The translations under genes and the position numbers were made by a program. Below the pieces are notes generated by a model. It ran no database searches, was not told the origin of the DNA, and saw nothing but the letters and a program-made list of their open reading frames with translations. DNA of 64,000 nt from Psammoneis japonica (lineage: Eukaryota), in assembly GCA_008632985.1 (NCBI GenBank), contig QPGO01000013.1:310001-374000 (forward strand). Reading direction: 5' to 3'. Shown in pieces: positions 26,256-56,785 of this stretch (position 1 is its first letter; the number at the start of each line of letters is the position of its first letter).

Positions 26256-27796
26256 AATCCTCGTTCTTGACGATACGTGCTAGCCTAACAAGAGTAGAAG
26301 CAAAGTGACACGAGAACAACAAATACAAGTCTTTGTGTACCTTTCCTTTGTTTGCGGAGGACTAGTCGGTGTGTTGTACAAAAGAGTGAGACTGTCTCGT
26401 GCCTCGACTTGCTGCTATTGGACTACTTTGTTCTGCCCTCCGCTTCCTCAGTGCTAGTGTGGATAGAATGATTGCTGCTCTCCTTTTCCTTCGTGGCTTT
26501 TTTACACTCTTTCATGTGTTGCTTTTCAACTAGTCGAGGAGCATGATCTCGATTCGTGCTTTACTGGGTTTGCGTCTACTGTGAACAGGGATCCTCGAAC
26601 CATGCATGCAACCAAATGCTGATTCGCGGCAAATCGTTGCGAACGCGAAGTGCCGGACGAGTGTGTCAGTTGAAGCGGTGGTTTTCTCAATGCGCAATCG
26701 TAGTTTCACCGAGGTTAATGCCAAGGGCAATAGACAGCGAGTAAAGCCGTTGGATTTTTGCAATAAATCTCGTCTCCTTTCCATTTAACGGCAAGATTGA
26801 CATTATTTCCACCATGGCCAAACCTCTTCTTATTGAAGGCGTTTCTGCATTCATCGTCTCCGAGCAGGTTTGTTTAACACCACCAATGGCTCTATTTAAA
26901 GACATGTCCCTGGGAAATATCTTGCTTAAGTGATATTAAATCCATCTCTGGTGTTCGATTTTTTTACTGTACATTGAGTCGCTTGTTGTGTGCGGCAGGA
27001 CGACCGCAATCCGAGTCGCTGTTGATGATTCCGTGCTGCAACGCAACGCGCTCTCTGCAGGCGGCTCCCACAGACCTCCCATGTTGGGAGCGCCTCTAGA
27101 GCAGCTCTTCCCATGTTGGGAGCATCTCCAGCTGGCAGAAGGGGCTGGAACAGGGGTGGCCACATTGGAGAACATGAGAACCTTCAAGCAAACGAGTTGG
27201 TCTGTGAAGCCACCACTCCCGGGTGTGTTGTGGCCCCGCCAGTGCATGGCGCAACTCTTGTGTGCAAAAAAGAGAGCAACAAAATGATCACACAACAAAA
27301 GACAGAGCCCAGCAGCTGTGCAAAACAGCAAAGACCACATCTTGAATCTGCTGCTCCGCAGGTTTTTTCAGCCACTGTTGACAAGCGCTCTAATCTTTGC
27401 AGAGCTCAAGCTGCTGGTTCCCTGCTTGTCACCTGGCCCACAGCGGCTCTGAAGCAGGAGAGCCAGAGCCCTTCAACACACATGTTGGGGGTGCTCTCAA
27501 GCCTGTCCTGTTGCTTTGCCTCCACCTGCAAGAGCATCTTTGTCCAAAGCTGCTCCGTGTGGGGCACAGCTCTTCCCTGAGGGCGCGGCAACAAAAGAGA
27601 ACAAGGGTGGGGGGGGGGGCAGGCCCACAGCTGTTGCACCAGCTCCAAAAAGAAAAATGGCATGGCCACAGCAGTGTGGCAGAGGAGTTTTGCCATGTGC
27701 TTCTCTCCACAAACTCATGCCACCGACACTTTTGTTGGAAATGAAGAAGCAAAACAATGCCGCCAGCCAGCGACACACACACGCACACACACACAC

Positions 27797-27965
27797 TGAC
27801 AGACATCCGAGACGGGGAGTGCACTCCCTTGTCTCGGACAGACTGGCGTGGACAGCATGGAGAGATCCGATGATCTCTCCTTTGCTCACTTTCTTTCTCA
27901 TCTAGTGCACGATCATCATCTGTCCCAGACATCAGTCAGATCATCCCAATGCCGCTAGTCCACAA
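27797..27965 (+). repeat. 5' LTR (169 bp)
   Basis: Matches 35018-35186 without gaps, 15 substitutions; contains hairpins (ggagagatc-cgat-gatctctcc; tccgaga..gggag-N4-ctccc..tctcgga). Confidence 0.93.
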
Positions 27966-28166
27966 GGTTGTGAGCAGCAGCATGCTGTTTGTCTTCCTCA
28001 GTGCAACTGCGTTGCAATGTTCGCTGTGTGATTTGGCACCGTTTCTCCTTTGAAATCGTCATCTTTGTCACAGCTGTTTTTCTCACTCGATTTTTGTGAT
28101 CATCACCACCACCACAGACCACATGCCAGCATTCCATGCAGGATTTTGATTTTTTTTCGCACAACC

Positions 28167-30192
28167 ATGGCGCCGACCAAGCAAACTTCCATCGATTTGA
28201 CCAAGATCAAGTCAATGCAGGTCAAATTCAAACAGCAAAATTGCTTGCCTGATGCCCATTCTTGCCTGAATGACCTTTGTTCAGACGCCATGCCTGCTCC
28301 TGAAGATCTTCTGGATGGATTTGCTCCTCCAGGCCTCAAGCCCAACGCAGTTGCAATCATCCATCACAAGATCGTTCATGATCTGATCACACCTCAGGCC
28401 ACCTTGACTGAGGATCTTCAACGGATTGGACCGCTCATTGACAAAGCTCCCCTCTTCGTGGCAGCTCCTCAAGACACCCCAATCTGTCTGAACCTTGCCA
28501 ATCTTCAGAAAGCTGTGATCAAAGCCATCTCAGATGCCCAAGACACCACAACCACATGTGTTGGGACTGTCAGTCTCTTCTTTTGCCCTGGTTTTGAGAA
28601 TTGTCTGTGTTGGGATGATGTCTCTGACACTCCACACCCACCGTCAGCCTCTCCTCCAAGCTCTGCATCTCAATCGACCACTGCTTCAGGTCCGACTCCT
28701 GAAGATTTTGCCAAGGCCTCAGCTGCTCATTTGCCTGGAGACCAAAACAGTTTGAGCAAGCTGTGACCAACGCATGGAAGACTTCTGCGGCTTCTGCACC
28801 ATCTCCTTTGCTTTCTGCCAAGACCACTGCTGCTGTGGTTTCCCCTGCGACAACGACCAGTGCTTTGTACACTTTCAACCCGAAGGGACTTCCAAAAGAT
28901 GCATTGGCTTGCTGTCAACGCAAGGAATCTGGGAAAGCAGCACTTGGGAAGTCACTGGCACCTTGCAAATCAGGAAACCTCTACCATGAAGATGGCACTG
29001 AACGTCTCATCCTTGCAGATGGTTCCCTCTTTGTCCATCATGCAGATTGGGATGCCAAGTCTTTCCTCCGTGATCCTTTGACATGTGACGATGTCTCACC
29101 TCAAGGAATCCGAGTGTGGTGTGCTGCAGCAACCCAACAAGCCTCGGCTTGTGGCATCTACATGCATCCTCTCTGGTGTTTCATCAAGGACGGTGGTGAC
29201 TGGGGTTTCACGAGCGGCAGCGACCCGACTGATGACCTGCCACTTCGCATGCATGCACCCCTTGACCGCATGAAGCTTGCACTTCTTCAGTGTGTTCAGA
29301 AGGTTGGAATTTTCCCAGCCGATTCCAAGCATCCTGACATTGTTCGTCAATGCCATGGAGACGGATGTGCTGCCCTCAAGATGACCCTGTTCGACATTCT
29401 TCCGATCTGGACCAAGCGCCCACATGAACTGATCAAGAGCTGCCCGCACCAAAACAATCTCACAATTCTCAGTTGCTGCGCTCTGTCTGGGATTTCCTCC
29501 AACTGCAGGCCATCATTTCCAATGTTGATGCCTCTCTTGATGATCCTGGTGAGCTGGACATCTTTCTCAGCAATGCTCGACATGGAGAGCACCTGCATCG
29601 AAAGACAGTTGCCGCCAGGGAAGACAAGAGTCAGGAACACAAATTCACTCAGAAGAAGATTGTCGAGATGATTGCTGCGATTCTCAAGGAACCAGACAGT
29701 CCTGCTCTTTGTGTCAAGGATCCTTCCAAATGCCCTGCATGACGCCTCCACAACCAGAATCTGGCCAATCCTCCTTTGGCAGCTCCTCTCCAAGCCCTTG
29801 ACTTGACACCTGAGGACGAAGCACCAGATCCACCTCTGATTGCTCTGGAACCTCCAATGGAAACTGCTCCTGCTTCCATTGAAGAACCTGTGGAAACTGT
29901 GGAGTGCTTTGTGGGCGAACTTGCTGCTGTGGAAATTCCACCGGATGATGACACACAAGCACTGCACGGCATTCACAAGGCTTGCATCTGCAGGATCAAG
30001 TCTTCCCCTGCCATTGCCCACTCTCAACCATGTGTTGCATGTGGTGATGACCACTTGTTCCACGAGTGTCCGGTCTTGAACAATGCTGAGCACCTGCGCA
30101 CCCATCTCATCCGCTTCTGCCAGCTCCTTCAATGTGACCGCCGTGCCCGAGACGCACCCAAGGATGGAAAGTCAAAAACGGATTTTTCCTGG
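28167..30192 (+). pseudogene. gag: Copia gag, degenerate and frameshifted
   Basis: Chain of ORFs 28050/28763/29473/29776; zinc knuckle CVACGDDHLFHEC near 30030; ends at DFS(W)G. Confidence 0.7.
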
Positions 30193-33100
30193 GGCCATTG
30201 TTGCATTCGGATGAACAATGCTGCCCGTCACTTCTCAATCCGAAACTGCATGCCAGCGGGGCAACTGCGAAAGAGGGTCCCAAAGACTCGTTGCCTTCCG
30301 CTGAACTGCCTCTTTCACGTGTCTCATTTGCTGACCTCTTGTCACCCTCAACGAAGACTGGAACCCCGGTGCAATGTGCAGCTGCCAATGAGAGTCAACG
30401 CATCACGGCGACGTGTTGCAGCCTTTAAATGTCACAAGGGCGTGACAAAAACAACCTTTTGTCTGCATGCATGCTGCGTTGTGAATTCACAACGGAGTGG
30501 TTCATCGCAACCATCAGGCAGGAGGCCAGGGGTTCGAAACCCTGAGTGGGAGTTGTCTGCAGCAACGTTGATCACTGTCGAACGCGTTAGACTCTGTGCA
30601 GTTCTGTGTGTTCCTTCGCACGTGCCCACACTGTTCCGCCAAAACCGTGCAGTGTCAGCACACGTTAGTAAAGAGCCGCATGGACGCGTGATGCATGGGG
30701 AGGAGTGCAACACACAGCTGCCAACAAGAGCCAATGCACCACGGCGACGTGTTGCAGCCTTTAAATGTCACAAAGGGCGTGACAAAAACAACCTTTTGTC
30801 TGCATGCATGCTGCACCGGATCTCAACACTGTTCCGGATGATGACCCAGACACTGCCAATCAGGGGAGGGCAACGCCTTCTCATGAAACATCCACCAGCG
30901 AGAACGATTTCTCTCTCTCCACTGATCATGATCAAGATTTTGAGTGCATCGATGTGGACGCCAACCAACATCTCTCACCTTTGAGTGCAGTGCACATCTC
31001 TCCGATTTTTTCTCCACCTGCAGCACCCACGACGTTTGACTCCTTGACTGCCCCCGTCATCCCGATCAACCATGCAATGCGTGATTCAACGATCTGTCGT
31101 GCGCAAATTGACACTGGCGCTTGGGTGTCTTGTGCCGGAGACAAACAACTCCTTCATGCTTGCACTCCATTTGGTCTGGATGACCCCTGTCCTTTGAAGA
31201 TGCTCCCTGCTGCTGAAGGCTCTGATGCAATCCCTCATGGTTTTGGTTGTCTGCAAGCACCTGCTGCGAATGCTGATGGTTTCCTTCTTGTTTGCACTTT
31301 CTGCCATCCCAGCCTCCGTTCCACCTTGATTGATGAACGCGACTTTGCACAGGCTTCTGGACTTACACTGAAAGCCATTTGTTCCGAGTCCCTCGAGAAG
31401 ACCTGCGCTGATGGAACGTGTGCCCATGCTGCTTCGACTGATGCTCAAGTGGTGATTGTCCATGGCATCCTCCGACATGGAAAAGTTTTTGCCCAGCCCC
31501 TGGTCCCACCGTCTCCGACCAATGATCCCTCCATGCCTGCGACTTCTGACTTGCTTCCGGTTGATGACATTGACGATGCCTGCCAACGTGCGATTTTTTA
31601 TGTCAACGTTCAGCAAATGCCGTCTGACCCTTGGTTGATGGATGCTGAGTTGTTTCCAACACAATGCAACTCCATTGTGCACTGTTCATCGCCTCCGCCA
31701 AGTTCTGCCCCGGTCCGCTCTCTCAAAGTTGAGACTGAACGTCTCCTTTGGCGCCAACGCCTTGGACATCCCAGCAATCACCATTTGCATCATGCTCACA
31801 AGCACATCAAGGGAGTTCCTGAGTTCCGTCATGCCAATCCAGCTCTTGACATTTGTCCCACGTGCATCCAGGCAAAACAAGTCAAGACTCCTGCTGGACC
31901 AAACTCCACTCGCACGGCAACTCAACCATGTCAAGGTCTCACTGTGGATTTTGCCTTTGCTGGACAAGCCTCCAAGAATGCATGTCGCACCTCTGATTGC
32001 CTTGGCCACAATGGCGAAACATGTTGGATCACCGTTTGCAACCATAAAACACGCGTGCTTCATGGTGTTGCACGAGTCTCGAAGGCTGGTCCTCTCAAGT
32101 GGCTTTGCCGATTCTTGGATCGACACTCGCCAAATTGTCATGACAAATGTGTGTTTGTGGACCAGGGAGGGGAATTGCACAAGAACCCCAAAGTTTGTGA
32201 CCTCTTCAAACGAGAATTCCAGCATGACATTTGCCCATCAGGCGCTGGTGCTTCCAATCAATGTGGCCCTGTGGAACGCTCACATTTAACTGTTGAGAAC
32301 GCGATTCGTGCAATCTCAATTGGCGCCAATCTCCCGATCAGATTCTGGCCCTGTGCTTTTTACCATTGCCTCCGCATCAAGAATGCTGCTCCTGCGAAAG
32401 ATCAAGATGCATCTCCTGTCACCCTTGCTGCTGGAAAGGTCGAAGACTTTGCCACCTTGAAGACTTTTGGATGTCGAGCATGGGCCAAACGCTCCACAAA
32501 ACGCTCCGCCACTTTTCGCTCCAACTCCAAGAAGGGTGCATTCCTTGGACATCTCCCAAACACCCTGAAGAATGTTCTTTGGTGGGATCCGGAGACTGAC
32601 AACGTCAAGACAGCTAAACACGTCCGTTGTGACGAGGGCATGAATGACCTCTCCACAGATCAACTCCCTCTGAATGCCATCCAGTTGCAATGCATGGAAA
32701 ATGGTCAGCCTTTTCCGGCTGAAACACAGGACACGACCGTCCCAATGTTTGCTTCTTCATCAAATCCTTTTGCCAAGACCATCACTTGCACCATGAAGCG
32801 TCCTCCAATGGATCCCAGCTGTGGTTTTGGGTTCTCCATGTGTGCTCTCATGGAACGCACACATGTCTCGGACATCAAGCAACGCAGTCCTGCGGCCTCC
32901 CTGTTCTCTTCTCTCCGTGCCACTCGGAACAAGCTCATGGGTGCCCATGTTGTCTCTGTCAACAAGCACGAAGTCTTTACACCGCAAGATGCTGAAAAAG
33001 CACTCCTGCAGGTCTGCCAAGATGACATCCCTACTTTTGAACTTGCGTTTGCGCCTGAACGACGTCTAGATTCTCGCACCCTTAACAAAGCCTTTGAGGA

Positions 33101-34904
33101 AGCGGAGCCATTTGATCCTGACTCAATGGAAGATGACTCCCATGCACCGGAGCTCACTTTGGAGGATGCACGATCCATTGCAGCAGTCCTGTGTCCTGAT
33201 GATGACTTCTCCAATGATGCTGTTCCGACCGAGGCTTTCTGTGCTCATCTCCATGCCATCAGCTCTCGTGCAATCACCCCGGAGGAAGCTGCCCTTGAAC
33301 GCCTTGCCCGTGCCAAGCTCTGTAAACTTGAAACATGGCCTGAATGGGAAGAAGGAGAGAAGCGCCAATTGGACCAATTTTGTGCACTTGGCATGTGTGG
33401 CCCTCCACAACCTCGTCCCGCATTCTTCATGTGTGGAACGCTTGGTTGAAAAGATGTTTTTCGCTCTCAGTGCTGCCACATCTTATCGAATCTATGGTGG
33501 TGACGCACGCGATGCATGTGCTCATTCTCCTGGCCCTTCACAACCGGTGTTTGTCGCCATTGATGATGCCTGTGCTGCTTGGCATGAAAATTGCTTTGGC
33601 AAGAAGGCACCTCGCCACTGCATCCTTCCGCTCCGGCATGCTCTCCAAGGTCATCCTGAAGCTGGTGTTCTGTGGGAAAAGCACATCAGTTCGATTCTCA
33701 CTGGTGCAAAACTTCTTTTTCGCAACACTGCTCATGACAAGTGCATCTGCTCTGGTGAACATGACGGTGTCAAGGTCCTGTTGCTCCGTCAAGTTGATGA
33801 TTTTGCACTTGCTTGTCCTTCCGAGAAGGTTGCGAAGGAAATCTATGATCACATTGGGAAAGCTCTTCAGATGGAGAACGAGGACACTCCCCCCTTCAAA
33901 CATCTCAGCCTCGTTGCTGAATTCAATGGCATTGATGTTGTTCAGGGTCAGAATGATGATTCGATCATGATCAATGTTGCCAGCTGCCTCGACCGTGTCT
34001 TCAAGACCCATGGATGGGACACTCCCGCTGCGAATGAAACCGACACCGATTTCAAGGCTGCCCCTGTGCCAGTCGACTGCATTCCCGAGTTGTGCACTGC
34101 TGAAGGCCCCGAGGAGGGTGCTCCTGAATGTGATGCTCTCTCTGCCTCTCATGGTTTTTCCTGTTGCTCTCTCTTGGGTGAATTGGTCTTTGCACACTGT
34201 GCTGTCGCTTGGACATTGGACACCCTGTTGTCACCTTGTCCAAGTTCTCCAAGGCTCCCGCTGATGTTCACTGTGATTCCCTCAAGCGCATGACTGAGCA
34301 CCTGCGATGTGCCAAACACTGGGGCTTGACACACAAGAAGACTGAGCGTGATCCGGGCCTGCCTCCCCGTGCTTTTGAGTGGCTCGAAGATGATCCTTCT
34401 CTTCCTGAGTTCCCCCGCGTTGATGATCTGTTCCAACTGCTTGGCTTTGTTGATGCGGCACATGCCAATGAACTGTGGTGTCGCCGCTCTGCCACTGGGT
34501 GTGCGCATGTCCTTGCTGGTGCTGTGATTGATTGTCGTTGCCATGCACAGACCATTGCAGCTGCCAGTTCCGCCGAGGCTGAATTCCTCGCGGCTGTCAC
34601 TGCTGCCAAGCAGACGTTGTGCCTTCGCATGGTCCTTGAAGAGCTGGGCTTTGCCCAACGTGACCCCACTTGCTTGCATGTTGACAACTCCTCCGCCATC
34701 CGGATGATCAACAACAAGGTGCCTGCGGAGTGATCGCGCCACATTGACATTCAACATTTTGCGATCCAAGACTGGCGCGATGCAGAAAAAATTGTCACAA
34801 GACATGTTCCGGGTGTTGTTGACCCTGCCGACGTCCTCACCAAGGCTGTGGGTTGGATGCTTCATTCCCACCATGCCCGTCGTCTCATGGGACACTGCTG
34901 TTGA
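30180..34904 (+). pseudogene. pol: Copia pol (protease, integrase, RT, RNase H), mutated
   Basis: PR IDTGA (about 31110); LLW(R)QRLGHP...CPTC; integrase VDF / DQGGEL / GPVERSH; RT ALQGHPEAG and LRQVDDF; RNase H GFVDAAHAN, EAEFLAAV, RHIDIQHFAIQDW, HARRLMGH(C); internal TGA at 34731. Confidence 0.92.
30370..30815 (+). mobile_element. Nested TRIM-like non-autonomous LTR element (446 bp)
   Basis: About 110-bp terminal direct repeats (30370-30478, 30706-30815), outer ends TG...CA, PPT ggggaggag before the 3' repeat, CCGG duplication on both sides; removing it restores the pol frame. Confidence 0.8.
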
Positions 34905-35017
34905 TTGTTGTTCTGTTTTGTGTGTCTTTTTGGTTTGCTGTTCTGGTCCTCATTTTTTTCTCTCGGATTGTCTCCTTTCTTTCTTGATGAGCTTTTGCAT
35001 TGCTCATCAGGGGAGGG

Positions 35018-35186
35018 TGACAGACATCCGAGATGGGGAGCACACTCCCTTGTCTCGGACAGACTAGCATGGACAGCATGGAGAGATCCGATGATCTCTC
35101 CTTTGCTCACTTTCTTTCTCATCTAGCACACGATTGTCATCTGTCCTAGACATCAGTTAGATCATCCCGATGCCGCTAGTCCGTGA
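35018..35186 (+). repeat. 3' LTR (169 bp)
   Basis: Preceded by the PPT, followed by the TSD CACAC, and matches the 5' LTR. Confidence 0.93.
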
Positions 35187-38100: not shown

Positions 38101-41100
38101 TGGAGCTCACATGCTAGCATTGGCGGGAGGCTTGTGCTGCTAGATGCCACAGAGCTCTCTCACCAACCCCCCCTCTGTGCACACATGTGAGAGGTTGCCC
38201 CCCTTGGCATCAGCAAGGGGGTTCCCTTGATGCAACACATCAAAAGCAGAATTTTTGTGGTTGTGTGAGACCAGCTCTCCCCCATGGTGAGAAGAAACTC
38301 TCTTGTGCAACTGCTGACACCACACCCCTCTGTGACCCAGCTCTCTCCTCCAGTCAAGCATGTGCAGCTGCTCATTTTCAAATGTGGTGTTTGCGTCAAT
38401 TCATTTTCTTCAGCAAATGATCAACTCTCAACCATCTCCAATTTGTGCTGCATTTTTCCATGGCCAGCAGAAAATTGCTGGCTGCTGGCCATGTCATTGC
38501 ACACAAGAATGGAGCCATCCAGCACACCCTCATCTCAAATGTTGTCTGGTGTCATCCAGACAGGCCAACCATGATCATTTGCTCCCATTGTGGCTTTGTT
38601 CTTCTTGTTGGAATCCCTGCTGCTGTGTGCTTCTTCAATTGTTTTCATTCATGCTGTTGCTTGGGTTTCTTGCATCAATGAGCTTGCTCTTGTTTTGTTC
38701 CTCTTGCCTTCTTTTCACTTGGGTGAGTGTCATCATCACCACAGAGGCTGCAGGCAGATGGCAGCATGCTTGTTTTGGTGCATGCTTCCTCACCTGCACC
38801 CAGCCTGCAACACATGCATTGACTTCTGGTGTGATGCCAGCTCAAATGAATGAGTTGCAATGTGAAAGAGCTGGTGAGTCAAATGCAAATGAAGGAAGTG
38901 AAGTTAAGTGCAGGTTAGAAAAGTCATCTTTGACACACACCTGAATGTCAGAAATTTCCACTGTCACAAAATGACTGCTGAGCACAGACACAATCAACAA
39001 ACATCAAATGGAACAGCTTGCCACACAGCCCAAGTCTGCTTTTCCACATTGTGTTGTTCTCATTTGCACGAACCCGTTTGCCTGAGAACTGAGAAGCACC
39101 ATCCACAAATTTGCATCAACAAATGTTTTGACACACCAGCAATGGAGACCAGATTGTTTGATGACAAAAATGTGACCGCTGGATTTGTGTGTGTGTCATT
39201 TTTCATTGCCTCTGTTGTCAAGCACAACCTCAACTCCTTTTTGACTGCCAGCCAATGAACTTTGATTGCTTGTTGCTCATGAGCAATCAAAGTTGATTTT
39301 AAAAAGGGCACAAATGCACCTTGTGTGAGAGGTTGCACTGGCTCTTGAATTTTTGGCATGATGGAGCACAACGTCAAGGTGGTCACCCCCCACCAGAGCC
39401 AACACCTCATGTTCCTTTGTCATTTTTTGCCTCAAAGACGATGTGCTCCATGTTTTCAAAATCATTGTCATCAAGTTCTTCCCTGATGAGGACTGTGGTG
39501 GTTGCTCTCTTGCTGAACTTTGTTTTGGTCCTGCGTTGTTGCTTGCATCAGAGCTTGTCAGCACAAAAAAGTGGTTTCTTGTGGCTTTGGGAGTGTTTGC
39601 CTTGTCAGGCATCAGGGCCGCATCATTGCAAGGGCTCGTGCAGGGAGCCACAAAGTGCGTTGATCCATGAGATGTTTTTGTTGCAGTGTGGCTGCCAGGC
39701 ATGTGCTCTTCTGTCAGTGGGCGCAAATGCATGCTTGTCATTGTCTTGGTGTCTGCCAAGCATTGTCTGGTCTGCAAAAGACCTCAATTGAAGCAAGCAG
39801 CATCACACCTCTCCTTTCTCTCCCCCCCCCCCCCCCATTGAAAAATCTGGTTGCTGCAATGAAGGATTTGGTGCATCATGGTTCAAGGAAAGGAAGCAAG
39901 AGAAGGCCAACTTGTCACAGGAGGCAGAGAAGAAGCACAGCAGAGAGGAGAAGAGGAAGGAGAGAGAGGGCAGATGGCCACTCTGATGGGAGAGAGGTCC
40001 TGCCCTTGTAGCCAGTGGCAGCTGGCAATGGTGCGGAAGCAATTGCAGCCATGGCAACAAACCAAACTGGTGTGCAAATGCAACAATGCAAGGAGATGAA
40101 ATGCAGAAAGAAGTTGCACAGGTGCAGAGGATGGGTTGCAGGTGGCAAGAGATGTGATGAAAAAGGCATGAGGAAAAGCAAATGACAAGAAGGGTTGAGA
40201 ACAAAACCACGGGCAAGAATGTTCGTGCTTCAAAGTGGGGTGAAAGCTGGAGCCCACCGAAACTTGTAAACTCAATTGGTTCTTTGCCAATGTTCAAAGA
40301 AAGACTTGGCTCACAAGTTCACAATTGTCTGGGATTGGAGTCAAGAAATGCCCAGATTGTGACAGGTGGTCAGACCCAGATCATTGGTGTCCCAGATGCA
40401 CAACAAGGCACACTTTCAAATGGCAACAGACCCACAGTCAAACTGACCCACCAACCAACCGGCCAACACGAACAAAAAGTCACAATCACCAACCACTGAG
40501 TGTCAATGAAAACTCCAACTGCACTGCCAAACAAAGCAGAGTTCTTCCAACCCTGAAGCCCGTGCCAGGCCCAATGCAGACAATGGCTGCCACATGTGCC
40601 TGCTGCTTTGCCTCTGTCTCCAAACTCATTTGGTTTTGCCCATTTGGAGATTCCCCAAAATGGCAAGGGCAAGGGGAATTGCCTCACCCTTTTGGGAAAT
40701 GCCCAGGAAATGAGAGCAATTTAGCGGGAAGGAACAACTGAAAGGGTTCAGGGGAAGGAACCAAAAATGAGTGCAGTGCGGCAACCCCACTTGATTTGGC
40801 TTGGGCAGGTGTGCTTTTTCCTTGTTTTCATCCAGCCGTGGCTGGGCGACGACCATGATGGATGCATCAACAAATTGACACAAAGTGGCCCCTTGTGGCA
40901 GAGCAAGGGAGAACAAACTTTGCCATTAAATCATGCACATTGACATTGCTCACATGCAGCTCCATTTGTGCCCCAGCCCAGAGCCCAGCTCCCACAAATT
41001 GTCATTGTTTGTGTGCTGTGGAATTTGACAGAGGGAGGGAAGGGCAAATTTTTAGGCAGTGAGCAAAACATTTGTGAGGGCAGGCATTTGCAGTGCAGTG

Positions 41101-44100
41101 CTGCACATGGCTGAATTCTTCACACTCCACAAAGACATGTGACTCCATTTGCAGGCACTGGCATGAGTTTTTGCATTCAAATCATTGAAATGGTGAATGA
41201 CCGTTTCACAGTTCTGGTGGACCCCACGAAAACCCACAGCACAAGCACTGTACAATCCTCAATTGAGGAAAATCCCGGTGGACCAGACATTTTAAAGTGC
41301 TTCTTCATGTGTGATGTGAGAACACTCCACGGCAGTCTCTGCTCTTTCTTTTTGTGCAATTTTCAAGACCGTCATTGTTTTTAATTTAAGCTTTTTCCGT
41401 TCAGATTTCAAAAAATCCGGATTGATTGTTCTGGCCATTTTTTCAGGCAACGCAAATCGCCCGCATCCCGCATTTGCTTTCGGTTGCCTCAAGCCTCAAG
41501 TGAAACAAGACGTGGTTGCGACCATGTGCAAAGCCGATGAAGAGCCGAAATCAACCAGTGCGGTTTTCAAACCACCTCTTTCACCAGAGATGTCACAACG
41601 AGAACTAAAGATCATCAAGTTGAATGACCGAGTTGACAAGATTGCTCAAGGGGCCACAAAAGAGGCCAAGAAAAACGGAACAGAGCTCAAAACGCAGTTT
41701 GCACACACCCAGAGAAAGAAAACCTTTGTCAATGCAGGATTGCCGATCTGCATGCGACATCATGCCTGGTTGGTGTGCACATGCACCTTCCTGGCTGCTG
41801 GAATGATTGCCTGCGGTGTGACCCGAGCAAACCCCCAGAACAATCAACCCAATTCAGTTAATTGCAGTTGGTTGCAATTGCAAATCAATTGCAGCATGTT
41901 CACCTGTTCCTCAACGCATTGGTTTGATTTGTGTTGTGCTTGATTTCTGCACATTGCATGCAAAAAATTGCATCGCTTCTCAGCACAAAAACGATGCAGG
42001 TTTCTACACGGTCATGAAGCAATGGCGGCATCTTGCTCTGCTTCTCCCAACACAATGCGATCTGCACCCATTTGTTTGTTGTTGTTGCCGTTGAGTGCAG
42101 CACGTCATGTTGCATGAAGGAAAACAAGGATCTCTGGGATGTCAGTGATGTGGTTGAAGCCATCAAAAAGAGGCTGGAGAAAAGCAAGGAGAGCTGAGCA
42201 TCCAAGAAGATTGAAGAGGAGGCCCTCATCATTGCAGCCATGGTGGCTATGGTGGCATGTGATGATGACGAATCTCAGCAGCAATTGCTTCATCACAATT
42301 GTGCAATTGATTGCAATTTAATTGCAGCCTCTCCAGCCCCAGCTGCAATGAATGGAACCTCCAGTGTTGTTGGCGGGAAATTAAAAAATGAAATTTTCTG
42401 GGGGTTTGGACCCAAGTCCACCCTCTGATTGGCAATCTTGTCCATTGTTTTCATGTGTTTTGAGTGCAACATGCACTCAGGAATCCTTCACGTCATGTTT
42501 GATCTCCCCAAAACATCGATGCACCAGTTCCAGGACAAGTCTGCTGCCTTAATTCCAATGGCATCATTTCATCGCCAATGATCTGGTGCACAAGGACTTT
42601 GTCGACACCTGTGGTGACCTCAATGTTGTTGCAGCCATCTTTTAGCATCAACCTGATGCTCCCAGACTTCAGCAAAAGCAGTGTTGCCAAGATTGTGTTT
42701 GGCACAAAGATCCTGATGGGACACTTTGGTCAACACACTCATTGCAGTGGTCATGCCATTGGTGCAAGTCTGTCATCCCTGGCAAGATTTTTGCAAAAGT
42801 GCGGCCTGATGATGTCAACCAAGGATTGCTGGATGCACCATCAAGAGCCCCATGACTCCAATTTCTGCAACATCAGTTGCTGCAACCCAGTCATTCATTT
42901 TCTAAGAAAGACCATGCTCAATGATTTGGCATGGATTGTGCTCTTTCTTGTGTGGAGCATCTTCATGATCAAAGTGCCAGTCATGTTCATGGAAATGGTC
43001 TCTTGACATTTTCTTTCTAAAAGCAACAGGCATCTTTTCCCATTGTCTGCCCACCCTAAAGCATTGTTCTGTTCTGTCCATGTGCAAGATGAAACAGAAT
43101 TGTTGCACAGTTGACATTAAAAACACACAGTCGTCATAAATCCATGTGATGACTGAGGTGTCACAGTGCAAGTGCCGGCATGACAACAACTGTGAACATG
43201 CCTCACGGGTGTGGCAGCCACAATCTGCAGCAGACAATGAACTCTGTGCAGAAGTTACAATGTGTGGCATGTTCATGCAAAAGGACCAGTGGGCATTTGC
43301 GATGGCCAGCAGTTTGATTCTCTAAAAGCCAAAACACTGAGTGTCATTCTTGAGCAGGCAACCTGTGTCATTTTGATTGCATGGACTGTCTTGCACTGGC
43401 CAGTGGATCTCTTTTTGTGGAAAAATCCAATGCCAGATCAGAAAGCTTTGCTTCATGAGCCAAGTTTTTTGTTGTGTGATGGTGATTCACTGTGCAGCTT
43501 TTGCCAGTGGCATGTGTCAATGTCTGGCTGGTGACATGCAACCAACTGTGGCTGCTGGTGCATTCCTCTCTTTGGCATTCTTTCCTTTGCAGCCAGCACA
43601 CCCACATGTGACTGTGTGTGCTTGGGTGGACAAGGAAGAGCTGCCATCCACAGGGTGTGCTGCAAGACTTGGGCATGTGGCCAATGTGCAAATGCCACAA
43701 GAAAAACTCTGAAAATCCAGTGGCATTGCCATCACAAACCCAGACAAAATTTTGCCCCTGCCAGCTCTCTCAGAGATGCTGGGCTTTTGTTGGTCATGCT
43801 TTTGTTGCAATCATCATCAAGTGCAAACTCTCACACATGGCACTCACAAAGCCCCTCCTCAGCAAGCTGCACATTGTGCCCCTTGTTCAGCTTCAGAAGA
43901 AAACAATGGCACCTGGCAGGGCCCTTGTTGTCTTTCTTCAAGGAATGCAACACCCTGCTGGGAAACCATGCAGAGCTGAGAAGTTTGATCTTGCCAGGTT
44001 CTCAAGGTGGTGAATGTGGGAGCTCATGACATGCTCTCCCAGCTCTCTTGAACACCCCTCTCATGAGATTGTCTCTTTTTGGATCAAAGGGACAGGGGAC

Positions 44101-47100
44101 CCAGGTTTTTCTTTAATGCACACATGGCAGAAAGCAGTTTTTTGGCATGTTGCATGAGATGATGCCACATGATTGGCAAGAACAGCTTCTGTTGTGCACA
44201 AAATCATGCCAAAATCTTCTGCTGGTTGCAAGGAGAGGCAGAATTTCAAAGCAACGTTTTCCAAAATTGGTCTCAGCTGGTGCATTGTGTCTTGTGACTC
44301 TCGATGATGGTGCTCATTTTGCTGTGGTGATGACATTGACAACTGCTGCAGCTTCATTGAGCAAAGAAGTTGTCTTTGCCAAGAACAAAAAAACCTGCAC
44401 AATTTCTGTGGTTTTCCCCAACCAAAGCAGCAGCAGGATGCAAACAAGAAACAATCAAAGCCACACTGCTTGGGGGCAAATGATCATGATGCAGACCTGC
44501 AAGCAAAAGAGGCAGGCAAGTGCTCCTGGCCAGCCAGCAGCGGGCAATGATCAGACCAAAAAAAGCAGCAGCAGCATCAAAAGAAATTGGATTTGGCTAA
44601 AAAACTGTCACAAGGTGCCAAGCTTCTAACTCCCACTGCACCCTTTGCTGAACAACACACACCAAACAAGTGCATGGTTTCTCACCAAAGAGCTGCTTTC
44701 ATGAACTCAAGATCATGATGGACAGTTGCCTTTTGATGCCATCATGTCCACCATCATTGACCTGAGAGTGGGGTGCACCTGTGCACAAGTTTTAATGGCA
44801 GTCTCATCAAATGGTTTTGAAGTGTCTGCACAGCTCCACATCTTTTGTTTGAGCAACACATGCCATCATCCAAATGGCACCTTTGTGAGAATGAATTTTG
44901 TCATTTGCTGAAAATGTGAGCTGCAAAGACTTTGTCTGTCAGCAAACAACTTGCAAACATGATGAAAGCTCCAAGGAAAGGATTTTTGGGCTCTGAGTCT
45001 GCTGGGTGCCAATGCACAGATTTGGAGAACATGCAACCAAATCGACTTCACACCCACTGCTTCTTGCATGGGAACTGGCACAAAGCTTTTCCAGCGAGCT
45101 GCTTGAATGAGAAAGCTGGGATAAAAACAAACCTGCATTTTCCAGTTTGTCTGCTCAAGCAGGTTCAAATCAGTGCAAATTGTGAAACTCATGACAGGCA
45201 AAAACCAGAGCCTGAGTGTGCTTCTTGCTGCCACTTGTTGCTGTTCAACTTGGGTGAACTGTGGCAACTTGATGTGTGGCGATTGACAAAGAAGCTCGCA
45301 CATTTCTCAGAGCTGGCAAAAAAGATGCAGCATCAGAGGAGCAGGAAGTGCCAGGTGTCACCTGTCAAAAGGCTGAAGATTTTAAATCTTCTCTTGCCAA
45401 ACACACTTTACAATCATGATCAAGGTCAAGGTCTGTGCAAGTTTGCACCAGCACAGACAGCCACACCTGTGCCTGTTCTTCCACCAGAAACTCTGACTCC
45501 GGCTCCAGGAAATTGCTGTCTCAGAGGAAAGGTGGAGAAGAGACACTTGCTTTCAGCAGGTTCTCTGAGATGGTCTGTCTTCAGTCTCTTAAAAAAACAC
45601 TTGCTGCCTGGACAAGCTTGCTTGCCTTAAACTGACAACTCATCCGCTGGGTGATTCAAAGAACAAAGCCAAAAACAAGAGTGGTGGCATGGATGTGGCT
45701 GATTGCAGAGCTCAAGAAGCTCAACAAAATTGCTCTCAATGCTCCAGTTGCATTGATGCTGCTGCTTTGCAAGGCTTCTCTGGAAGAGTGGTGTCAGAAG
45801 TGAGCAAGAACAATGTCAAGACACCATGGAAGAGCATCTTGGGTGCTGTGCAAGTGGCTTTTTCCATCCAGAAGAAGAACATTGTCTGTGCAAGTGGGTT
45901 GGAGACTGCTGCAACACTCTGAAGGTGCAAAACTCCCTGCCCAAAACTGTGAAAAGTGTCCAGACAACTGCCAGCTGTGGCCCACAGATGTCACAGCACA
46001 CACACCACACATGCCACATCATCTGTTGTTGCAACAACATCATGTGCCAGCACCCAGCTCTGATGACACACTTTGTGAGAACACTTTTTCTTTGTTGTCT
46101 CCTGTGAGAGATGGAGTTTTGCTGGTGCCATGACTCTTCATTTCTGTTGACTGCATCATGCTTGTCTGTCATTGATCAGCATCCTTTCAACAAACACTTC
46201 AAGAAGTTCACACCACTCCAGACAAACACAGGCTCTGCTGTTGGTGGCACATGGTCACAGATGACTCAGCACATGTTTTTTTTTTAACAAGCACACACGC
46301 TTCATCAAGTTTCACATTTAAAAATGAGGTGTTGGGGTTGGCACCAACTCCCTGTGTTTTCATCTTTTGATGGCAGGCAAGTGTGCATGTGTGATTTGTT
46401 CCTCCCTTGTTGATCAACTTCTTTGTTCTGTGTTTTTAATTTGTCCATTCCTTTCTCAGGCCACACCACTTCCAAAGATGGCAAAGCAGGTGTTGAGCTC
46501 AGTGCAAACACAACAAAAGAGAGCAACTGTGGGAAAATGTTGCCAAACACCCAACAAGAGAGGGGCTGCTGGCAATGCAATTGACACACATGACAGCCAA
46601 ACAAGAGGTCTCACTTGCTTTCAAGAAAACTGCAGAACTTTCAAAGGAGGCCAAGACACAAGTGTGTGCAAGACCACCAATGCCTGACAACTGACTGTGC
46701 CCAAGTGTTTGTGGAGCCAGCATGTGCATTTGGGCAACACACTTTGTTGTGCTACCTCATTGTGCAGCATGCCAGCAATGCTGACTGCCTTTAGAACACA
46801 GAGCAAGGCAGTCATTCACAGCTTCATCATTGTCAGCCCCATTTGCTTCAGTTGATTTGTGATGTCCACAACCACAGCCATGGTGACTGCAGGAGATCAC
46901 AAGACACAATGGATGCAATTCTCAAAGAACCACAGCAGCTGAGGACAGAATGTGAATCCAGTCAACTCATGAGCAACAGGCATGTTGATCAGCAGCAAAT
47001 GGGTGTTTTTCTGAGTGGAGTGATTGCATCTCTTGACATTCACACCAATGGCAGCATCTCTTGCTTGCTGGATGCATGGGAGCACTGCATGGAAAAGTGC

Positions 47101-49291
47101 ATGTCAGCATGCACATTTGTCACATGTCTGGGGTGGTCTTGCCAGTGCTCAAGATGCCAACTGTCACAGTGGTGGTGCATTTTGAGGAAGTGTTGCTGGT
47201 TTGCTTCAAAGCTGCTTGCACACATCAAGCCATTCTGGGCATTTTGAAATGCCCCAGATGTTGCACACTCAAGATCCATCAGGATTTGCATTTTGGGTTC
47301 ATGGCTCCATTCTGGATGAGCACAAAGAAGGAGCACCACCACAAAGAGATACACATTTCCCAAGAGACACTTGGTTGCCTCAACACCAAAGTGTGCCACA
47401 GTGAGGGAGAGAAGTGGAGAGGACCCATGCTCCAGTGGGCAGCAGTGCTGCACGCAGGGCACTCTTGGAATTGTTGAATTTTCTTTTTCTGCTCTGCATG
47501 TCTTGCTTGCTCACAGATCCCTTGTGATGGCTGCTGCTGCTTCAACCAGTGCTGGCAGTCACATCAATTTTGAAGACATTTGTGCACTTGCATGTGCAGA
47601 TGGTGTGGCTCCTCTTGAGGACCACATTTAGTTTGACCTGCTTGCTGATGGCAAAGGCTCCATCATCTGCTGGTTCCAAAAATGGGGCTTCCATCTGCAC
47701 ACATGTGCAAGACAACTTTTGGCATCTCAGCCTCAAGAGAGCACGGGAGTGTGCAAGAAGCTGCTTCCTCAGATGACTTCAAGAATAATTTCGGTTGTTT
47801 GTCATGCCAAGGTTTTTTTCACTGCATGCACCCCAGCAACTAGAAAATCACCGAGCAGCTTCATGGACAGCTGCAGCTCAATTTAGAGAGAAATGTGTTG
47901 CTCCTTTGGCAGCAGTGTGAAAAAGCTAACAAAAACAAGGAGGAGGGCAAGTCAGATGGAAGAAGCAACCAGAGGTTGTGCCCAGCAATGAGTGCTCCTG
48001 AAGCACAAGGAGCCAAAGAGTGGCAACAGCATTCATGTGGAGAACAGCTGCAGTCAAGCCCAAAAAAGCATGGGCTGCACACAACTGCAGCTGTCCCAGA
48101 GATGAAGTGAGAGGAAGGACATGGCTGCACAGATTTCACATGAGAAAGGTGTGAGACATGCCAAGGCTCAAGACCTCGACACCAAAGAAAATCAAAAAGC
48201 TGCTGACAAGGTGATGCACCAGCCCATTGATTCACTCACAAGCCTGTGAATTTAGAAAGATGGCAAGCAAAAGCCAATGTGAACAATGTGGACAATGACA
48301 AGACATGGGGTCATGGATCCCAATGAAAAACAAAGATCAGAAGATCCCAGCTGGCTTGCATCTGACAAGTTCTGGGAAGGATCGAAAGCAAAGAACAGCT
48401 TTCACGACATTCTGGAAGCAGTTTTCCCCTGCTTGCTTCTGGCTCAATGGGATGAAAACCAAAACCAAAATTGAGTCTGGTGAAAATGACACCTTGCAGC
48501 ATTTAAAGATTGCTGGCTGGGTTGCAGAGAAAAATGTCAACGACAATCTTTTGGAGTGCAAAACATGGAAGACTTGAATGAAAAACAAATCCTCTCCACT
48601 TGTTGGAAAGTTGATGCCCAGACACACCTTGAAGAGAAGCATGGGGCAAATGAAAAGCAGAGTGAGTTACACAGCAAACTGCTGCAATCACTTGGCATGC
48701 CCGTGCAGAGTCACCCATGGCTTTTGTTGGGGAGAAAAGCAAGGAAAGAGCAACAGCAGAGATGTCATGGAGAGAGCGATGATGAGGGCTCATGAAGTTG
48801 AAGAACGCAAATGAGGAGAATTAGACTGTTGCTCTGGGCAGCTTGCCAGAAAGGAGAAAGACTGCAGAGTTGAGCATGTCAGAAAATGGGGCCTCAGTTT
48901 TGCCACCAAATGGGAGTGTTGTTTGCTGGCAGCACCTGGGTGTGATCTTTGCATGGTGAAGTGCGGCAACAGAGAGAAAAACAAAAAGCGGTTTCATTTT
49001 CTTGGCACACCCAAATGGCCAGATGTGGTGTGCATGCGAGCTGCTGTAGAATGGATTTGTTTGCTAGCCAGTCCTCTCAAAAATTGACACTGCAAAATTT
49101 TACAAGAGAACGCATTGTTTGAGGGCGTTGCAGTTGCGCGGTGGCGCGCTTTTTTTGCGCGCGTTCTCCCACCCACACGGAACAACGCACGCACTTGCAA
49201 GAAAACTGAAATTTCGAACTAACTTCGCACTTCACTCATTTTTGTTGTTGACCTGCGGTTGACGGTGGTATTGTGTTGATTGCTTCTGACC

Positions 49292-55300: not shown

Positions 55301-55389
55301 CTTCTGTCGGGGATGAATTGTTGTTGCCCATGGTCGCGACAAGATCTCAGAACGGAAATTCTGAACAATGTCAACGCCCGCCTCCGCAC
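52334..55389 (-). CDS. Large hypothetical protein with one TM segment and acidic repeats; exon structure and start uncertain
   Basis: Colinear ORFs 54808-55389, 54120-54740, 53134-54351 and 52334-53110, joined by an intron and apparent frameshifts; TM segment ILIFLVMLLFALLFGIFWF; D/E/S-rich tail. Confidence 0.55.
52768..53046 (-). repeat. 93-bp coding tandem repeat x3 (VETNETMADRAMDVDAEQEESPSEVxNDVEx)
   Basis: Three near-identical units with 93-bp period (e.g. 52781 vs 52874). Confidence 0.9.
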
Positions 55390-56785
55390 CCGCCCCCTGT
55401 GCCTTTATTTTCGGCCTCAAAAACTCGCAAGACGATGGCGCCCGCCAGGTCCGCCCGCCTGCCTGCCACCAAGGGGCGCCAGGCTCCAGGGGGTGAAATC
55501 GATTGCATCATTTAGCATGTTCGTGCCGAACAAAATGAATGTTATTTTCGAACATTGGTCACAATGGCGGGAGAATTGTTTGATGATGACAATCCTCATT
55601 CACAAATGCCCTCACAACACAATTCACATCTTCGTGCTCTCGCTCCACCGGCATCATGCTTCTGTGTCAACAGACAACATTGAGCGCAGAACAACAAAGG
55701 AGGCGCCGCCCTTGCCTGGCTGCCACCGGCAAAGATGCAGCCAAGTCGGAAAAAGCCCAGCCCATCATTGAACCCTCTTTGCACTGTCTTGCTGCCAGTT
55801 TGTCACAACAAGAACTCAAGAAGCACATTGCAGAAAAATCCAAGGCTTGTGAAAGGCTGTGCTGGACCAAAGCACTTCAAAGCGGCGCCAACAAGGTGGC
55901 AGCTGACACAATGTTGTTGGCTGAAATGATGTCAGCAGTCAGATGATTGTCCCTGCACCATGTCAGCATTGCCAGAAGGACACTTGTGAGAGCCGGTCTC
56001 AATGACACTCCATCCACTCAGCTCAATGGCCCCTTCAGAAATGCAAAAACAGCGTGTCAGCGCAGTTGCTGCCTCAGAAGAAAAACAGCAGAAACTTTTG
56101 AACATGGAAAAGAGCCCTCATTGTCATGTCAAACAAACAGCTGCAGCTTCTCTCTTGACACGTTGGAGAAAAAAAGTCCCCTCTGACAGAACAGCCACCG
56201 CGTTTGAGTGCCATGCCATTGGTCAATGTGCGCGCAAGGCGCTCGGCCACACAAACCAAATCAAGTTTCCTGTTGACTTGTCTCCAATTTGCAAAACAAC
56301 TGCCAGTGGGATCATCAAGAGGTTTTTGAGTTGCACCAGAAAATTGGGCTCGTTTGTCACATCTGTGTGAGGTGCAGTGGGCAGGAGGAGAGCGGGAGCG
56401 ACTGCGGGGCGGCGGCTGCAAGAAGAGGAGAATTTGAAGCATGGTGCACTGACGCATGCATTTTGATGGCTCTTGCAAGCATTGGCAGAACCATGACACC
56501 AACAGTTGAAGCACCAAAGCAGGCAAAAGCACAGATCAAGGCTGCGAGCGACAAGAAAGCAAGCCAACAATGCCACAAGCCAATCCCAGCACACAATGCT
56601 GTGATTTTTTGTGTGTTGCCAACTGCTTCCGCATCCATCCATCCATCCATCCACAGAAAAGTTCACTGTCTTTGATCAAGGTTGGTCAAGTTCCCATGAT
56701 GGCGCCACCGATCTGCAAAAACAAGAGACAGCAAGGCATGTTTTGTGAATCGGAGTCGAGAGAGAAAGTCATTGTGTCTCAGGAC
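55300..56785. other. TpA-depleted block 2
   Basis: TA is nearly absent until an abrupt TA-rich stretch at 56788 (tttatcttcaatttgtttattatttttatgtaa). Confidence 0.75.

Follow-up and report, generated by a model that had tools for sequence, protein, structure and literature searches.

Near-complete loss of TpA in transposon-rich blocks of the diatom Psammoneis japonica, consistent with A:T to G:C hypermutation after insertion

Hypermutation defences are well established for cytosine, as in RIP and APOBEC. Fungal RIP converts C to T at CpA, which results in an excess of TpA; it is confined to duplicated sequence and creates stop codons. For adenine in DNA, by comparison, the record consists of a single preprint on a single alga, the rhizarian Bigelowiella natans (Mettrop et al., 10.64898/2026.01.13.699255), whose main text describes integrated viruses hypermutated from A:T to G:C at TpA only. 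In mutation-accumulation lines of this alga, 230 of 231 hypermutations were A>G or T>C, all of them at TpA, and the per-generation rate was raised about 1000-fold. Moreover, TpA-depleted coding sequences were enriched in RT and DDE domains, and an ADAT2-like deaminase was proposed by the authors, who cite a report of amphioxus ADAT2 as a DNA editor (10.64898/2026.01.13.699255).

Here, a window of 64,000 nucleotides (the whole stretch of DNA that was analysed) was considered from P. japonica, a stramenopile and as such on a separate supergroup branch from B. natans. Three blocks depleted in TpA were found:

26971..49220, no strand: main TpA-depleted block, spanning some 22.2 kb and sharply bounded, with CpG low too and TG/CA raised
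55026..56790, no strand: second, smaller TpA-depleted block, 1,765 bp, with 6 TA, all 5′ of position 55544, and CpG mildly low
59602..64000, no strand: third block, TpA- and CpG-depleted, 4,399 bp, with 17 TA and 13 CG, continuing past the window end

A total of 120 TA were counted in the 28,414 bp of the three blocks (4.2 per kb) vs. 1,390 in the 35,586 bp of the flanks (39.1 per kb; Fisher P = 6e−221). In the main block, the observed/expected ratio (o/e) of TpA was 0.00–0.12 in all 22 consecutive 1-kb bins from 27001 to 49000, compared to 0.39–0.76 in the genic flanks, while TG and CA reached 1.3–2.1 in its bins. These bins and pooled counts confirm what had been noticed from the letters alone, namely the near-absence of TpA over about 22 kb, with an excess of TG/CA and ordinary flanks. 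The depletion is near saturation (o/e about 0.06), vs. 0.45 given for an NCLDV region in the main text on B. natans. Furthermore, the edges are abrupt, as TA is dense in the sequence until 26970 and dense again after 49220, and block edges adjoin gene starts. CpG o/e was 0.4–0.7 in the copia element described below and 0.02–0.2 across most of 35–49 kb; this CpG depletion is an addition to the sequence-only reading, which had named TpA only.

Regarding the dinucleotide shares, the change from flanks to blocks was −3.48 percentage points for TA, −3.79 for CG and +3.76 for each of TG and CA, so that the gain of TG and CA almost exactly equals the loss of TA and CG, while AA/TT showed no depletion. 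Since these blocks have also lost CpG, CG is the source of roughly half the excess of TG and CA. The direction is opposite to that of fungal RIP, as had been claimed, and RIP itself was ruled out on these shares, with TA falling and CA/TG rising. Both share dense context-specific transitions in DNA that is at least partly selfish, sharp edges, dinucleotide distortion and disabled elements; however, RIP makes TpA from CpA and introduces stops, whereas here TpA is destroyed, TAA and TAG are removed and long frames are left.

When the 83 open frames of the blocks were run against Pfam, two matches merited follow-up. None was obtained in the 9 ORFs of the second block (55026..56790), Rfam gave no match across the whole 64-kb window, and about 13 kb of the main block were without recognisable origin, with a Pfam match in 1 of the 51 ORFs there. 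The largest recognisable target in the main block was a retroelement, with the following parts:

27797..35182, + strand: copia-type LTR retrotransposon, hypermutated, identified by its LTR pair, polypurine tract and Pfam matches; its internal 7,056 bp have 22 TA
27797..27961, + strand: 5′ LTR, 165 bp aligned
35018..35182, + strand: 3′ LTR, identified by the LTR pair, with the polypurine tract immediately 5′
30804..33449, + strand: Pol ORF, integrase part, open, 881 aa with 2 Tyr, matching Pfam gag_pre-integrs and SH3_retrovirus
33094..34293, + strand: Pol reverse transcriptase part, in a different frame and degraded, RVT_2 at E = 0.0022 and 18.1 bits (cut-off 31.6)
30375..30814, + strand: small insert within the copia element, lying between two direct repeats of roughly 100 bp each, of very high copy number in run X1

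The assignment to Ty1/copia relies on the two LTRs, the polypurine tract and matches to PF13976 and PF25597 over their cut-offs, with RVT_2 under its cut-off. The copia protein had 44 homologues, the named ones belonging to Bacillariales diatoms, and gag-pre-integrase, integrase and RVT_2 domains were all present in the full-length homologues. In addition, positions 33420–34930 showed about 60% DNA similarity to copia loci in metagenomes.

Within the blocks, comparison of the window with itself yielded only two repeat pairs that were informative, the LTR pair and the direct repeats of the insert. The LTRs, spaced 7,221 bp, were 93% identical, and their 12 mismatches comprised three TG/CA doublets (6 nt), three sites with TA vs. 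TG/CA and three with CG vs. TG/CA, with no other kind present; thus, 9 of the 12 positions were TA-derived and the remaining 3 were CpG. The direct repeats of the insert differed at three TG/CA doublets, one CpG site, two other T/C sites and one indel. As all the LTR mismatches are TA- or CG-derived, and the second repeat pair adds three doublets, the mutations arose at the DNA level after insertion. None of the 12 LTR mismatches was of background type while most TA sites had been converted, which ranks the rates indirectly. In the young copia element, CpG o/e is still 0.4–0.7 whereas TA o/e is already about 0.05. CpG decay is therefore parallel to TpA loss but slower. Deamination of 5mC at CpG acts in the same blocks and leaves the same TG/CA products (CpG o/e of 0.02–0.7, and 3 of the 12 LTR mismatches), but it is unable to remove TA. 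In the copia element, 752 TG and 638 CA were counted; unmutated relatives are similar, so that no conclusion on strand bias is drawn from this difference.

At the protein level, composition bore out the count of only 2 Tyr in the 881-aa ORF, which also has 42 Cys and 38 His, and the eight peptide strings that had been listed as altered were all found in the copia element. In the protein columns, none of 13 conserved Tyr was kept, 6 being Cys, 4 His, 2 Phe and 1 Trp, so that the expected replacement by Cys or His holds for 10 of the 13. Other conserved residues were intact (Trp 8/8, Glu 12/12 and Gln 9/9), and a single TA step accounts for 23 of the 95 replacements. Similarly, the proposed Thr to Ala changes where TA spans into the codon were seen in at least six cases, each with a T preceding the codon. 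The process would act by missense rather than stop changes (Tyr to Cys/His, Thr to Ala, Val to Ala and Ile to Val), and since TAA and TAG are also erased, long empty ORFs persist.

The direction of change in the window was deduced from the LTRs and the protein columns, its nearest DNA relatives being only about 60% identical; for the same metagenome alignments, protein columns were used in place of a nucleotide spectrum. It had been foreseen that relatives might prove equally poor in TA and Tyr, which was not seen: Tyr made up 2.4–4.7% in 43 of the 44 homologues vs. 0.2% in the pol of the window, and TA o/e was at least 0.5 at 69 of 80 related metagenome loci. The same reading had allowed for a spectrum without an A>G excess in TA context, but an environmental copy (L060) was found half converted. 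With both strands pooled, A>G changes in this copy affected 49/148 TpA, 7/254 ApA, 23/363 CpA and 11/337 GpA. Its private changes at TpA were 31/80 for A>G and 18/68 for T>C, vs. 14/495 and 27/459 elsewhere, while a control copy (L050) showed 0/59 and 2/51 at TpA, respectively. Altogether, the conversion of TA to TG/CA stands as a real process acting after insertion on both strands and ruining pol, as indicated by the LTR pair, the second repeat pair, the Tyr to Cys/His replacements and the normal relatives.

The sequence rule could be further specified from TA survival in the blocks, which by tetramer was 0.49 for TTAA, 0.20 for CTAG, 0.026 for GTAC and 0 for ATAT. These values fit a multiplicative per-strand model with one neighbour, and the 4-mer gains agree. 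Conversions in L060 followed the 3′ neighbour in the order C, T >> G, A (C 20/35, T 13/35, G 5/39 and A 2/17), and strand-coordinated runs were absent (30 runs vs. 28.6 expected), with TG and CA products interspersed. The target is 5′-TAY-3′ on either strand, the strands being mutated independently, which is a new detail. If T is the mutated base, the equivalent target is 5′-RTA-3′; TA is palindromic, so that deamination of A and modification of T leave identical footprints.

As to what is being targeted, the main block also contains a remnant of a host-type gene:

42503..43003, + strand: lipid desaturase remnant, host-type, inside the main block, Pfam Lipid_desat at E = 3.5e−10, 0 Tyr

This remnant had 54 relatives (best E = 5.6e−25) and no Tyr in 167 residues, compared to 1.5–4.9% in 20 homologues. 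Summed contig depth in run X1 was 63,477 in the bin 30337–31003, which covers the insert, vs. about 60 in unique bins, and most bins from 35.7 to 45 kb had such single-copy-like depth (about 60) at 90% likeness or more, a threshold below which independently converted copies would score. The targets recognised in the block are a copia element, a high-copy insert and a host-type gene remnant, and the proposal that the process is directed at repeats found no clear support, with 35–45 kb mostly at single-copy depth and the lipid desaturase remnant equally Tyr-free.

The likeness to B. natans, as far as the main text of that preprint goes, lies in A>G/T>C changes at TpA giving TpG/CpA (seen here in the LTRs and L060), in their confinement to blocks, here presumably of foreign or silent DNA, and in a TpA loss coupled to CpA+TpG gain in clustered windows (10.64898/2026.01.13.699255). 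On the other hand, giant viruses and virophages are described as targets there, and a copia LTR element with a host-type gene remnant here. The strong CpG loss and the 3′ Y rule are found here and not in that main text, although its supplements could hold context data. The novelty that had been claimed is weakened: TpA hypermutation as such has a precedent in B. natans (10.64898/2026.01.13.699255), and the literature reached by our searches held nothing on diatoms, to which these results would extend it.

The explanation favoured, at a probability of roughly 0.6, is A:T to G:C hypermutation at TpA in silenced, transposon-rich DNA after insertion, by an agent that we infer to be a DNA adenine deaminase. 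The blocks would represent silenced DNA hypermutated in the chromosome once elements had inserted. Each strand of the palindromic TA would be struck independently, giving TG or CA with a preference for 5′-TAY-3′, at a rate well above CpG decay (presumably 5mC deamination) and far above background mutation, and the process would halt sharply at block edges. The enzyme may act on the DNA of silent chromatin, where it would deaminate adenine to inosine, and could plausibly derive from the tRNA A34 deaminases (TadA/ADAT2, from which base editors have been derived). In the natural substrate of these enzymes the target A comes after U33, in agreement with the strict 5′ T found here, and the bacterial TadA substrate is UACG, which the 3′ Y preference fits. 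However, we know of no natural TadA or ADAT2 for which activity on chromosomal double-stranded DNA at such a scale is established. The effect may be interpreted as genome defence disabling foreign or selfish DNA; repair or replication peculiar to heterochromatin would produce the same picture as a side effect. A broader version, put forward only tentatively, is that an old DNA adenine deaminase directed at chromatin is common to diatoms and chlorarachniophytes and erases 5′-TAY-3′ on both strands of silent or foreign DNA.

Several other explanations were weighed against the deaminase. A long-read artefact, with heterochromatic TpA carrying a modified base that the basecaller misreads, is very unlikely, even though the runs found derive from a single sample whose library is unrecorded. 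A contig of the public run X1 (8,681 bp, k-mer depth 61.8; the longest contig of the run being 315 kb) covers 25001–27759 with three differences, none of which restores TA, and reproduces 789 bp of the block. Run X1 represents one sample, possibly the source of the window's assembly, with library type unrecorded, and the fraction of sampled words of 25001–35000 present in it was 0.73; runs X2 (five contig pieces) and X3 (none) were excluded from the evidence. Among the 40 differences listed between contigs and window, 12 made up six doublets in which a CA of the window was TG in the contig, and TA was read in only 3. Moreover, TA-free blocks also appeared in metagenome contigs, several of them named in the style of a short-read assembler: L025 carries such a block, and L011 has 5 TA over 199–2660, its sharp block counting only as a sighting of TA-free DNA, as it may be an assembly chimera. 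The B. natans hypermutation, according to the main text, came from Illumina reads (10.64898/2026.01.13.699255). An even smaller probability is given to editing of the retrotransposon transcript by an ADAR-like enzyme before reverse transcription and integration. A>G with a 5′ U preference is ADAR-like, and a retroelement is the largest target that could be recognised, but the LTRs, identical at integration, now differ at TA-derived sites, which contradicts this reading, TG and CA products are interspersed on one strand, non-retroelement sequence in the block is also converted, and the 3′ preference is for Y (C, T >> G, A) and not G; to our knowledge, ADARs occur in animals only. APOBEC and ADAR are comparable in that retroelements hypermutated by deaminases are preserved in the genome, but they act before integration on cDNA or RNA, on one strand and in other contexts (A>I preferring a 3′ G, or C>U), whereas here both strands are affected at TAY after integration. 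Finally, a native composition, with element families naturally poor in TA or losing it by selection, has a negligible probability, given the Tyr content of 43 of the 44 homologues and the TA o/e at 69 of the 80 related loci; the divergence of the LTRs at TA sites after insertion contradicts it.

Two alternatives are more difficult to set aside, each being unlikely but to a far lesser degree. The signature might be a by-product of replication or repair in silent or late-replicating chromatin, through an error-prone polymerase patch or mismatch-repair bias and with no dedicated defence, for which the host-type gene remnant, the sequence of unrecognised origin, the block edges adjoining gene starts and the CpG decay marking the same domains would speak. 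Against it, the dinucleotide specificity is extreme (in L060, TpA 49/148 vs. ApA 7/254, CpA 23/363 and GpA 11/337), and the clean one-neighbour rule resembles the site preference of an enzyme more than polymerase error. In particular, Pol-eta-like WA>WG patch mutagenesis, one of the mechanisms suggested from the sequence, was ruled against, as the predicted ApA conversion was not seen (7/254 in L060) and AA/TT is undepleted in the blocks. Alternatively, the T of 5′-RTA-3′ in silent chromatin might be oxidised or otherwise modified (for example to 5hmU or 5fU, by a TET/JBP-type enzyme) and mispair with G, giving T>C. The footprint would be identical, TA being palindromic, and the co-located CpG loss would suit a domain of base-modifying enzymes; 5-formyluracil is mutagenic and dinoflagellate 5hmU prefers TpA. 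However, near-complete conversion demands a very high mispairing rate, and no such modification is known to us from diatoms.

The near-saturated TpA signature in diatom transposons and related environmental contigs suggests a process beyond one species. A shared deaminase system, if real, might occur widely among SAR protists and influence the composition of their repeats; it would edit adenine naturally in the double-stranded DNA of eukaryotes and mirror fungal RIP, acting by missense with frames left open. A natural DNA adenine deaminase would also be of interest for base-editor development. The rule found (TAY, independent strands and no coordinated runs) constrains the enzyme, and diatoms with genetic tools would permit identification of the gene. 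On a practical level, gene prediction, the dating of repeats and codon statistics can be led astray by the long Tyr-free frames of converted elements.

A candidate deaminase frame was found in the third block:

61335..61667, − strand: open frame with a CDD/CDA-like deaminase match, PF14421 at E = 3.8e−5 and 23.9 bits (cut-off 27.1), unconfirmed

The rest of the domain was not found in 21 neighbouring frames (E up to 5), and the frame matched nothing in PDB at E up to 10 and gave no usable Atlas match, so that a full LmjF36.5940-like CDD/CDA deaminase (PF14421) was rejected for its short match, under the cut-off and with no support from its neighbours. The match comprises 27 residues, below threshold, and includes the PCxxC motif.

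TpA was nearly absent and TG and CA were in excess over about 22 kb, as had been read from the sequence alone: in the 1-kb dinucleotide profile, the observed/expected ratio (o/e) of TpA was 0.00-0.12 in all bins of 27001-49000, compared to 0.39-0.76 in the genic flanks, with TG and CA at 1.3-2.1 in the same bins. The domain was sharp, TA being dense until 26970 and dense again from 49220, and two further depleted blocks were found. A total of 120 TA in 28,414 bp (4.2 per kb) were present in the pooled blocks, compared to 1,390 in 35,586 bp (39.1 per kb) in the window outside them (Fisher P = 6e-221). Moreover, CpG was also depleted, a point absent from the sequence-only reading, its o/e being 0.4-0.7 within the copia element but falling to 0.02-0.2 across most of 35-49 kb; this decay was parallel to that of TpA and slower. 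The dinucleotide shares of the blocks changed by -3.48 (TA), -3.79 (CG), +3.76 (TG) and +3.76 (CA) percentage points, so that losses and gains balanced. Furthermore, TAA fell from 8.7 to 2.1 per kb and TAG from 9.2 to 1.3 per kb, and because of this scarcity long open frames were numerous on both strands. The edges of the main block (26971-27100 and 49111-49220) were CpG-dense but already TA-free; TA loss therefore extends beyond CpG loss, to the adjoining gene starts.

Features in and beside the main block (26971-49220)
27797-35182, copia-type LTR retrotransposon (LTR pair, purine tract, Pfam domains)
30375-30814, small insert of 440 bp in the copia gag region, with direct repeats of ~100 bp
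42503-43003, + strand, host-type lipid desaturase remnant (Pfam E = 3.5e-10)
55026-56790, further TpA-depleted block
about 59602 to window end, further TpA-depleted block (third)
61335-61667, - strand, deaminase-like open frame in the third block (27-residue match to the LmjF36.5940-like CDD/CDA family)

The copia element had LTRs of 165 bp each, 93% identical and spaced 7,221 bp, with a purine tract immediately 5′ of the 3′ LTR, and it carried gag-pre-integrase and integrase SH3 Pfam domains together with a weak RVT_2 match. Its 881-aa pol ORF shared 36-53% identity with its 44 homologues, of which those with a named source were from Cylindrotheca, Nitzschia and Pseudo-nitzschia, and the closest named relatives of a flanking host protein of 1,107 aa were from Bacillariaceae and oomycetes. 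These relatives place the organism among the stramenopiles, most likely with the pennate diatoms. The insert reached a summed depth of 63,477 in X1, a public sequencing run with contigs matching the window, compared to ~60 for unique DNA (~thousandfold); no Rfam family matched it, and an internal stretch resembles a tRNA T-arm box in its sequence. In the normal-composition DNA between the blocks, a 93-nt unit in three tandem copies (52766-53050), 92-95% identical to the reference copy, is probably a coding repeat.

The LTRs of a retrotransposon are identical at integration. All 12 mismatches of this pair were of three kinds: six positions formed three TG-vs-CA doublets, three sites had TA in one LTR and TG or CA in the other, and three were CG-vs-TG/CA sites. 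A doublet must be the product of two independent hits, on opposite strands, at one ancestral TA. Since LTRs identical when integrated now differ at TA- and CG-derived sites, the changes in the blocks are mutations of DNA that followed insertion. Between the direct repeats of the insert there were three more doublets, a difference at one CpG site, a further two T/C changes and a single indel. In the pol ORF, 274 of the 369 columns conserved in at least 70% of homologues were kept, including tryptophan (8/8), glutamate (12/12) and glutamine (9/9), while none of the 13 conserved tyrosines remained (now six Cys, four His, two Phe and one Trp). Among the 95 replacements, 23 were explained by a single TA>TG/CA step and five by a single CG step; at least six Thr>Ala replacements belonged to the TA class, all with T preceding the codon. 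The core of the sequence-only reading, TA converted to TG/CA with loss of tyrosine from pol, was therefore right, as seen from the LTR doublets and the lost tyrosines, and the phenomenon is real and striking.

TA survival by neighbouring bases, blocks compared to flanks
TTAA 0.49
CTAA 0.31
CTAG 0.20
GTAA 0.12
ATAA 0.11
CTAC 0.06
ATAG 0.04
GTAC 0.026
ATAC 0.006
ATAT 0

The ten values fitted a per-strand model: the A of each strand is a separate target, and a single neighbouring base determines the rate at which it is hit. Calculated from the palindromic contexts, the survival expected under this model was 0.315 for CTAA, and for GTAA it was 0.113. The five TA retained by the insert were all in resistant contexts (TTAA, TTAG and GTAA). 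According to the 4-mer gains, in which noise arises from the use of genic flanks, and not of the elements' ancestors, as the reference, ancestral ATAA and GTAA became mostly ACAA and GCAA rather than ATGA and GTGA; the sensitive A is therefore the one with a 3′ pyrimidine. In L060, a related metagenome locus for which ancestral states were inferred, hits by 3′ neighbour were 20/35 (C), 13/35 (T), 5/39 (G) and 2/17 (A). TG and CA products were interspersed there (30 runs vs. 28.6 expected, P = 0.71), which argues against processive, strand-coordinated action.

A native TA-poor composition was contradicted by the relatives, which were normal rather than equally poor in TA and tyrosine: tyrosine made up 2.4-4.7% of 43 of the 44 homologues, 1.2% of the other and 0.2% of the window's pol ORF, and 69 of 80 related metagenome loci had a TA o/e of at least 0.5. 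Five loci were below 0.35 (L025, 0.14; L011, 0.27; L023, 0.31; L060 and L022, 0.33 each). L011 had five TA in a block at 199-2660 with normal flanks and sharp edges, one within pol, although this block may be an assembly chimera. Private changes of L060 (2001-9694), called against the majority of the other members among ten that were 81-85% identical to it, comprised A>G at 31/80 and T>C at 18/68 TpA positions, compared to 14/495 and 27/459 away from TpA; a control locus of the same family, L050, showed 0/59 and 2/51 at TpA. Environmental copia contigs spanned all grades of conversion, L060 being converted by about half and L040 mildly (A>G at 11/122 TpA sites). By 5′ neighbour, the A>G excess in L060 was specific to the TA context (TpA 49/148, ApA 7/254, CpA 23/363, GpA 11/337); Pol eta-like patch repair (WA->WG), an earlier candidate, is contradicted by the ApA count. 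ADAR-type RNA editing is likewise contradicted by the counts, such as the LTR pair differing at TA-derived sites.

Regarding miscalling, the public runs containing the stretch came from one sample in one study. The X1 reads look accurate because the longest contig reached 315 kb and unique depth was ~60. An X1 contig of 8,681 bp (depth 61.8) spanned 25001-27759, including 789 bp of the main block, and none of its three differences from the window restored TA, the library type not being on record. Other contigs at ≥90% likeness differed by 268 transitions and 53 transversions; 40 differences were listed, ahead of 282 others, and among these 40, 12 formed six TG/CA doublets, three were TA where the window had TG, five were CpG transitions and 20 were other changes. 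TA-free DNA was also seen in metagenome contigs, several with short-read-assembler-style names, and the Bigelowiella natans mutations considered below were called from Illumina reads (bioRxiv 10.64898/2026.01.13.699255). On the available evidence, the TA depletion is not an artefact. At 35433-36945, an X1 contig of 1,509 bp (depth 55, unique 62) showed 26 differences from the window, with TG/CA doublets frequent among them. This contig may represent a paralogue or else the second haplotype, and if it is an allele, conversion went on independently on two homologues.

The hypermutation was most likely produced by deamination of adenine to inosine in the DNA of silent chromatin. Thymine-directed modification may instead cause the TpA loss, and its footprint would equal that of adenine deamination. 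In tRNA A34 deaminases, the target A follows the conserved U33. The strict 5′ T of the block hypermutation matches this U33. An ADAT2 homologue is proposed as the agent by Mettrop et al. (bioRxiv 10.64898/2026.01.13.699255), who report that in B. natans two integrated viral regions carry 231 mutations, of which 230 are A>G or T>C changes and fall without exception on TpA, and that 324 TpA-poor CDS are enriched in RT and DDE domains; its main text covers neither diatoms nor trinucleotide context. Literature searches covering hypermutation, RIP-like processes and mutation accumulation in diatoms, as well as TpA depletion, gave no other match to the signature. The hypermutation in the window belongs to a kind whose first description dates from 2026; it adds a new lineage and a more extreme case, and is not a categorically new system.

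Targeting by repetition had also been inferred from the sequence alone. Across 35183-49220 (14 kb), one of 51 open frames had a Pfam match, to a lipid desaturase domain. This frame had 54 relatives among 1.84 billion representatives searched and no tyrosine in 167 residues (nine Cys, eight His), compared to 1.5-4.9% in 20 homologues, so host-type sequence was converted too; the histidine-rich motif common to the homologues persists. Given that this remnant is converted and that depth is single-copy over most of 35-45 kb, repetition is no more than a putative targeting cue, and a 'defence' role is an interpretation. The remnant, which perhaps extends to the CpG-richer stretch at 41200-42100, may be a pseudogene, a fragment that was captured, or a gene around which silent chromatin has spread. 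Finally, the match of the deaminase-like frame in the third block spans the PCxxC motif at 23.9 bits, under the cut-off of 27.1, and the frame may be what is left of a deaminase gene, now dead, or the match may be due to chance in Cys-enriched sequence; LmjF36.5940-like deaminases are described as occurring in stramenopiles and as possible DNA mutators (Iyer et al. 2011, PMC3239186).
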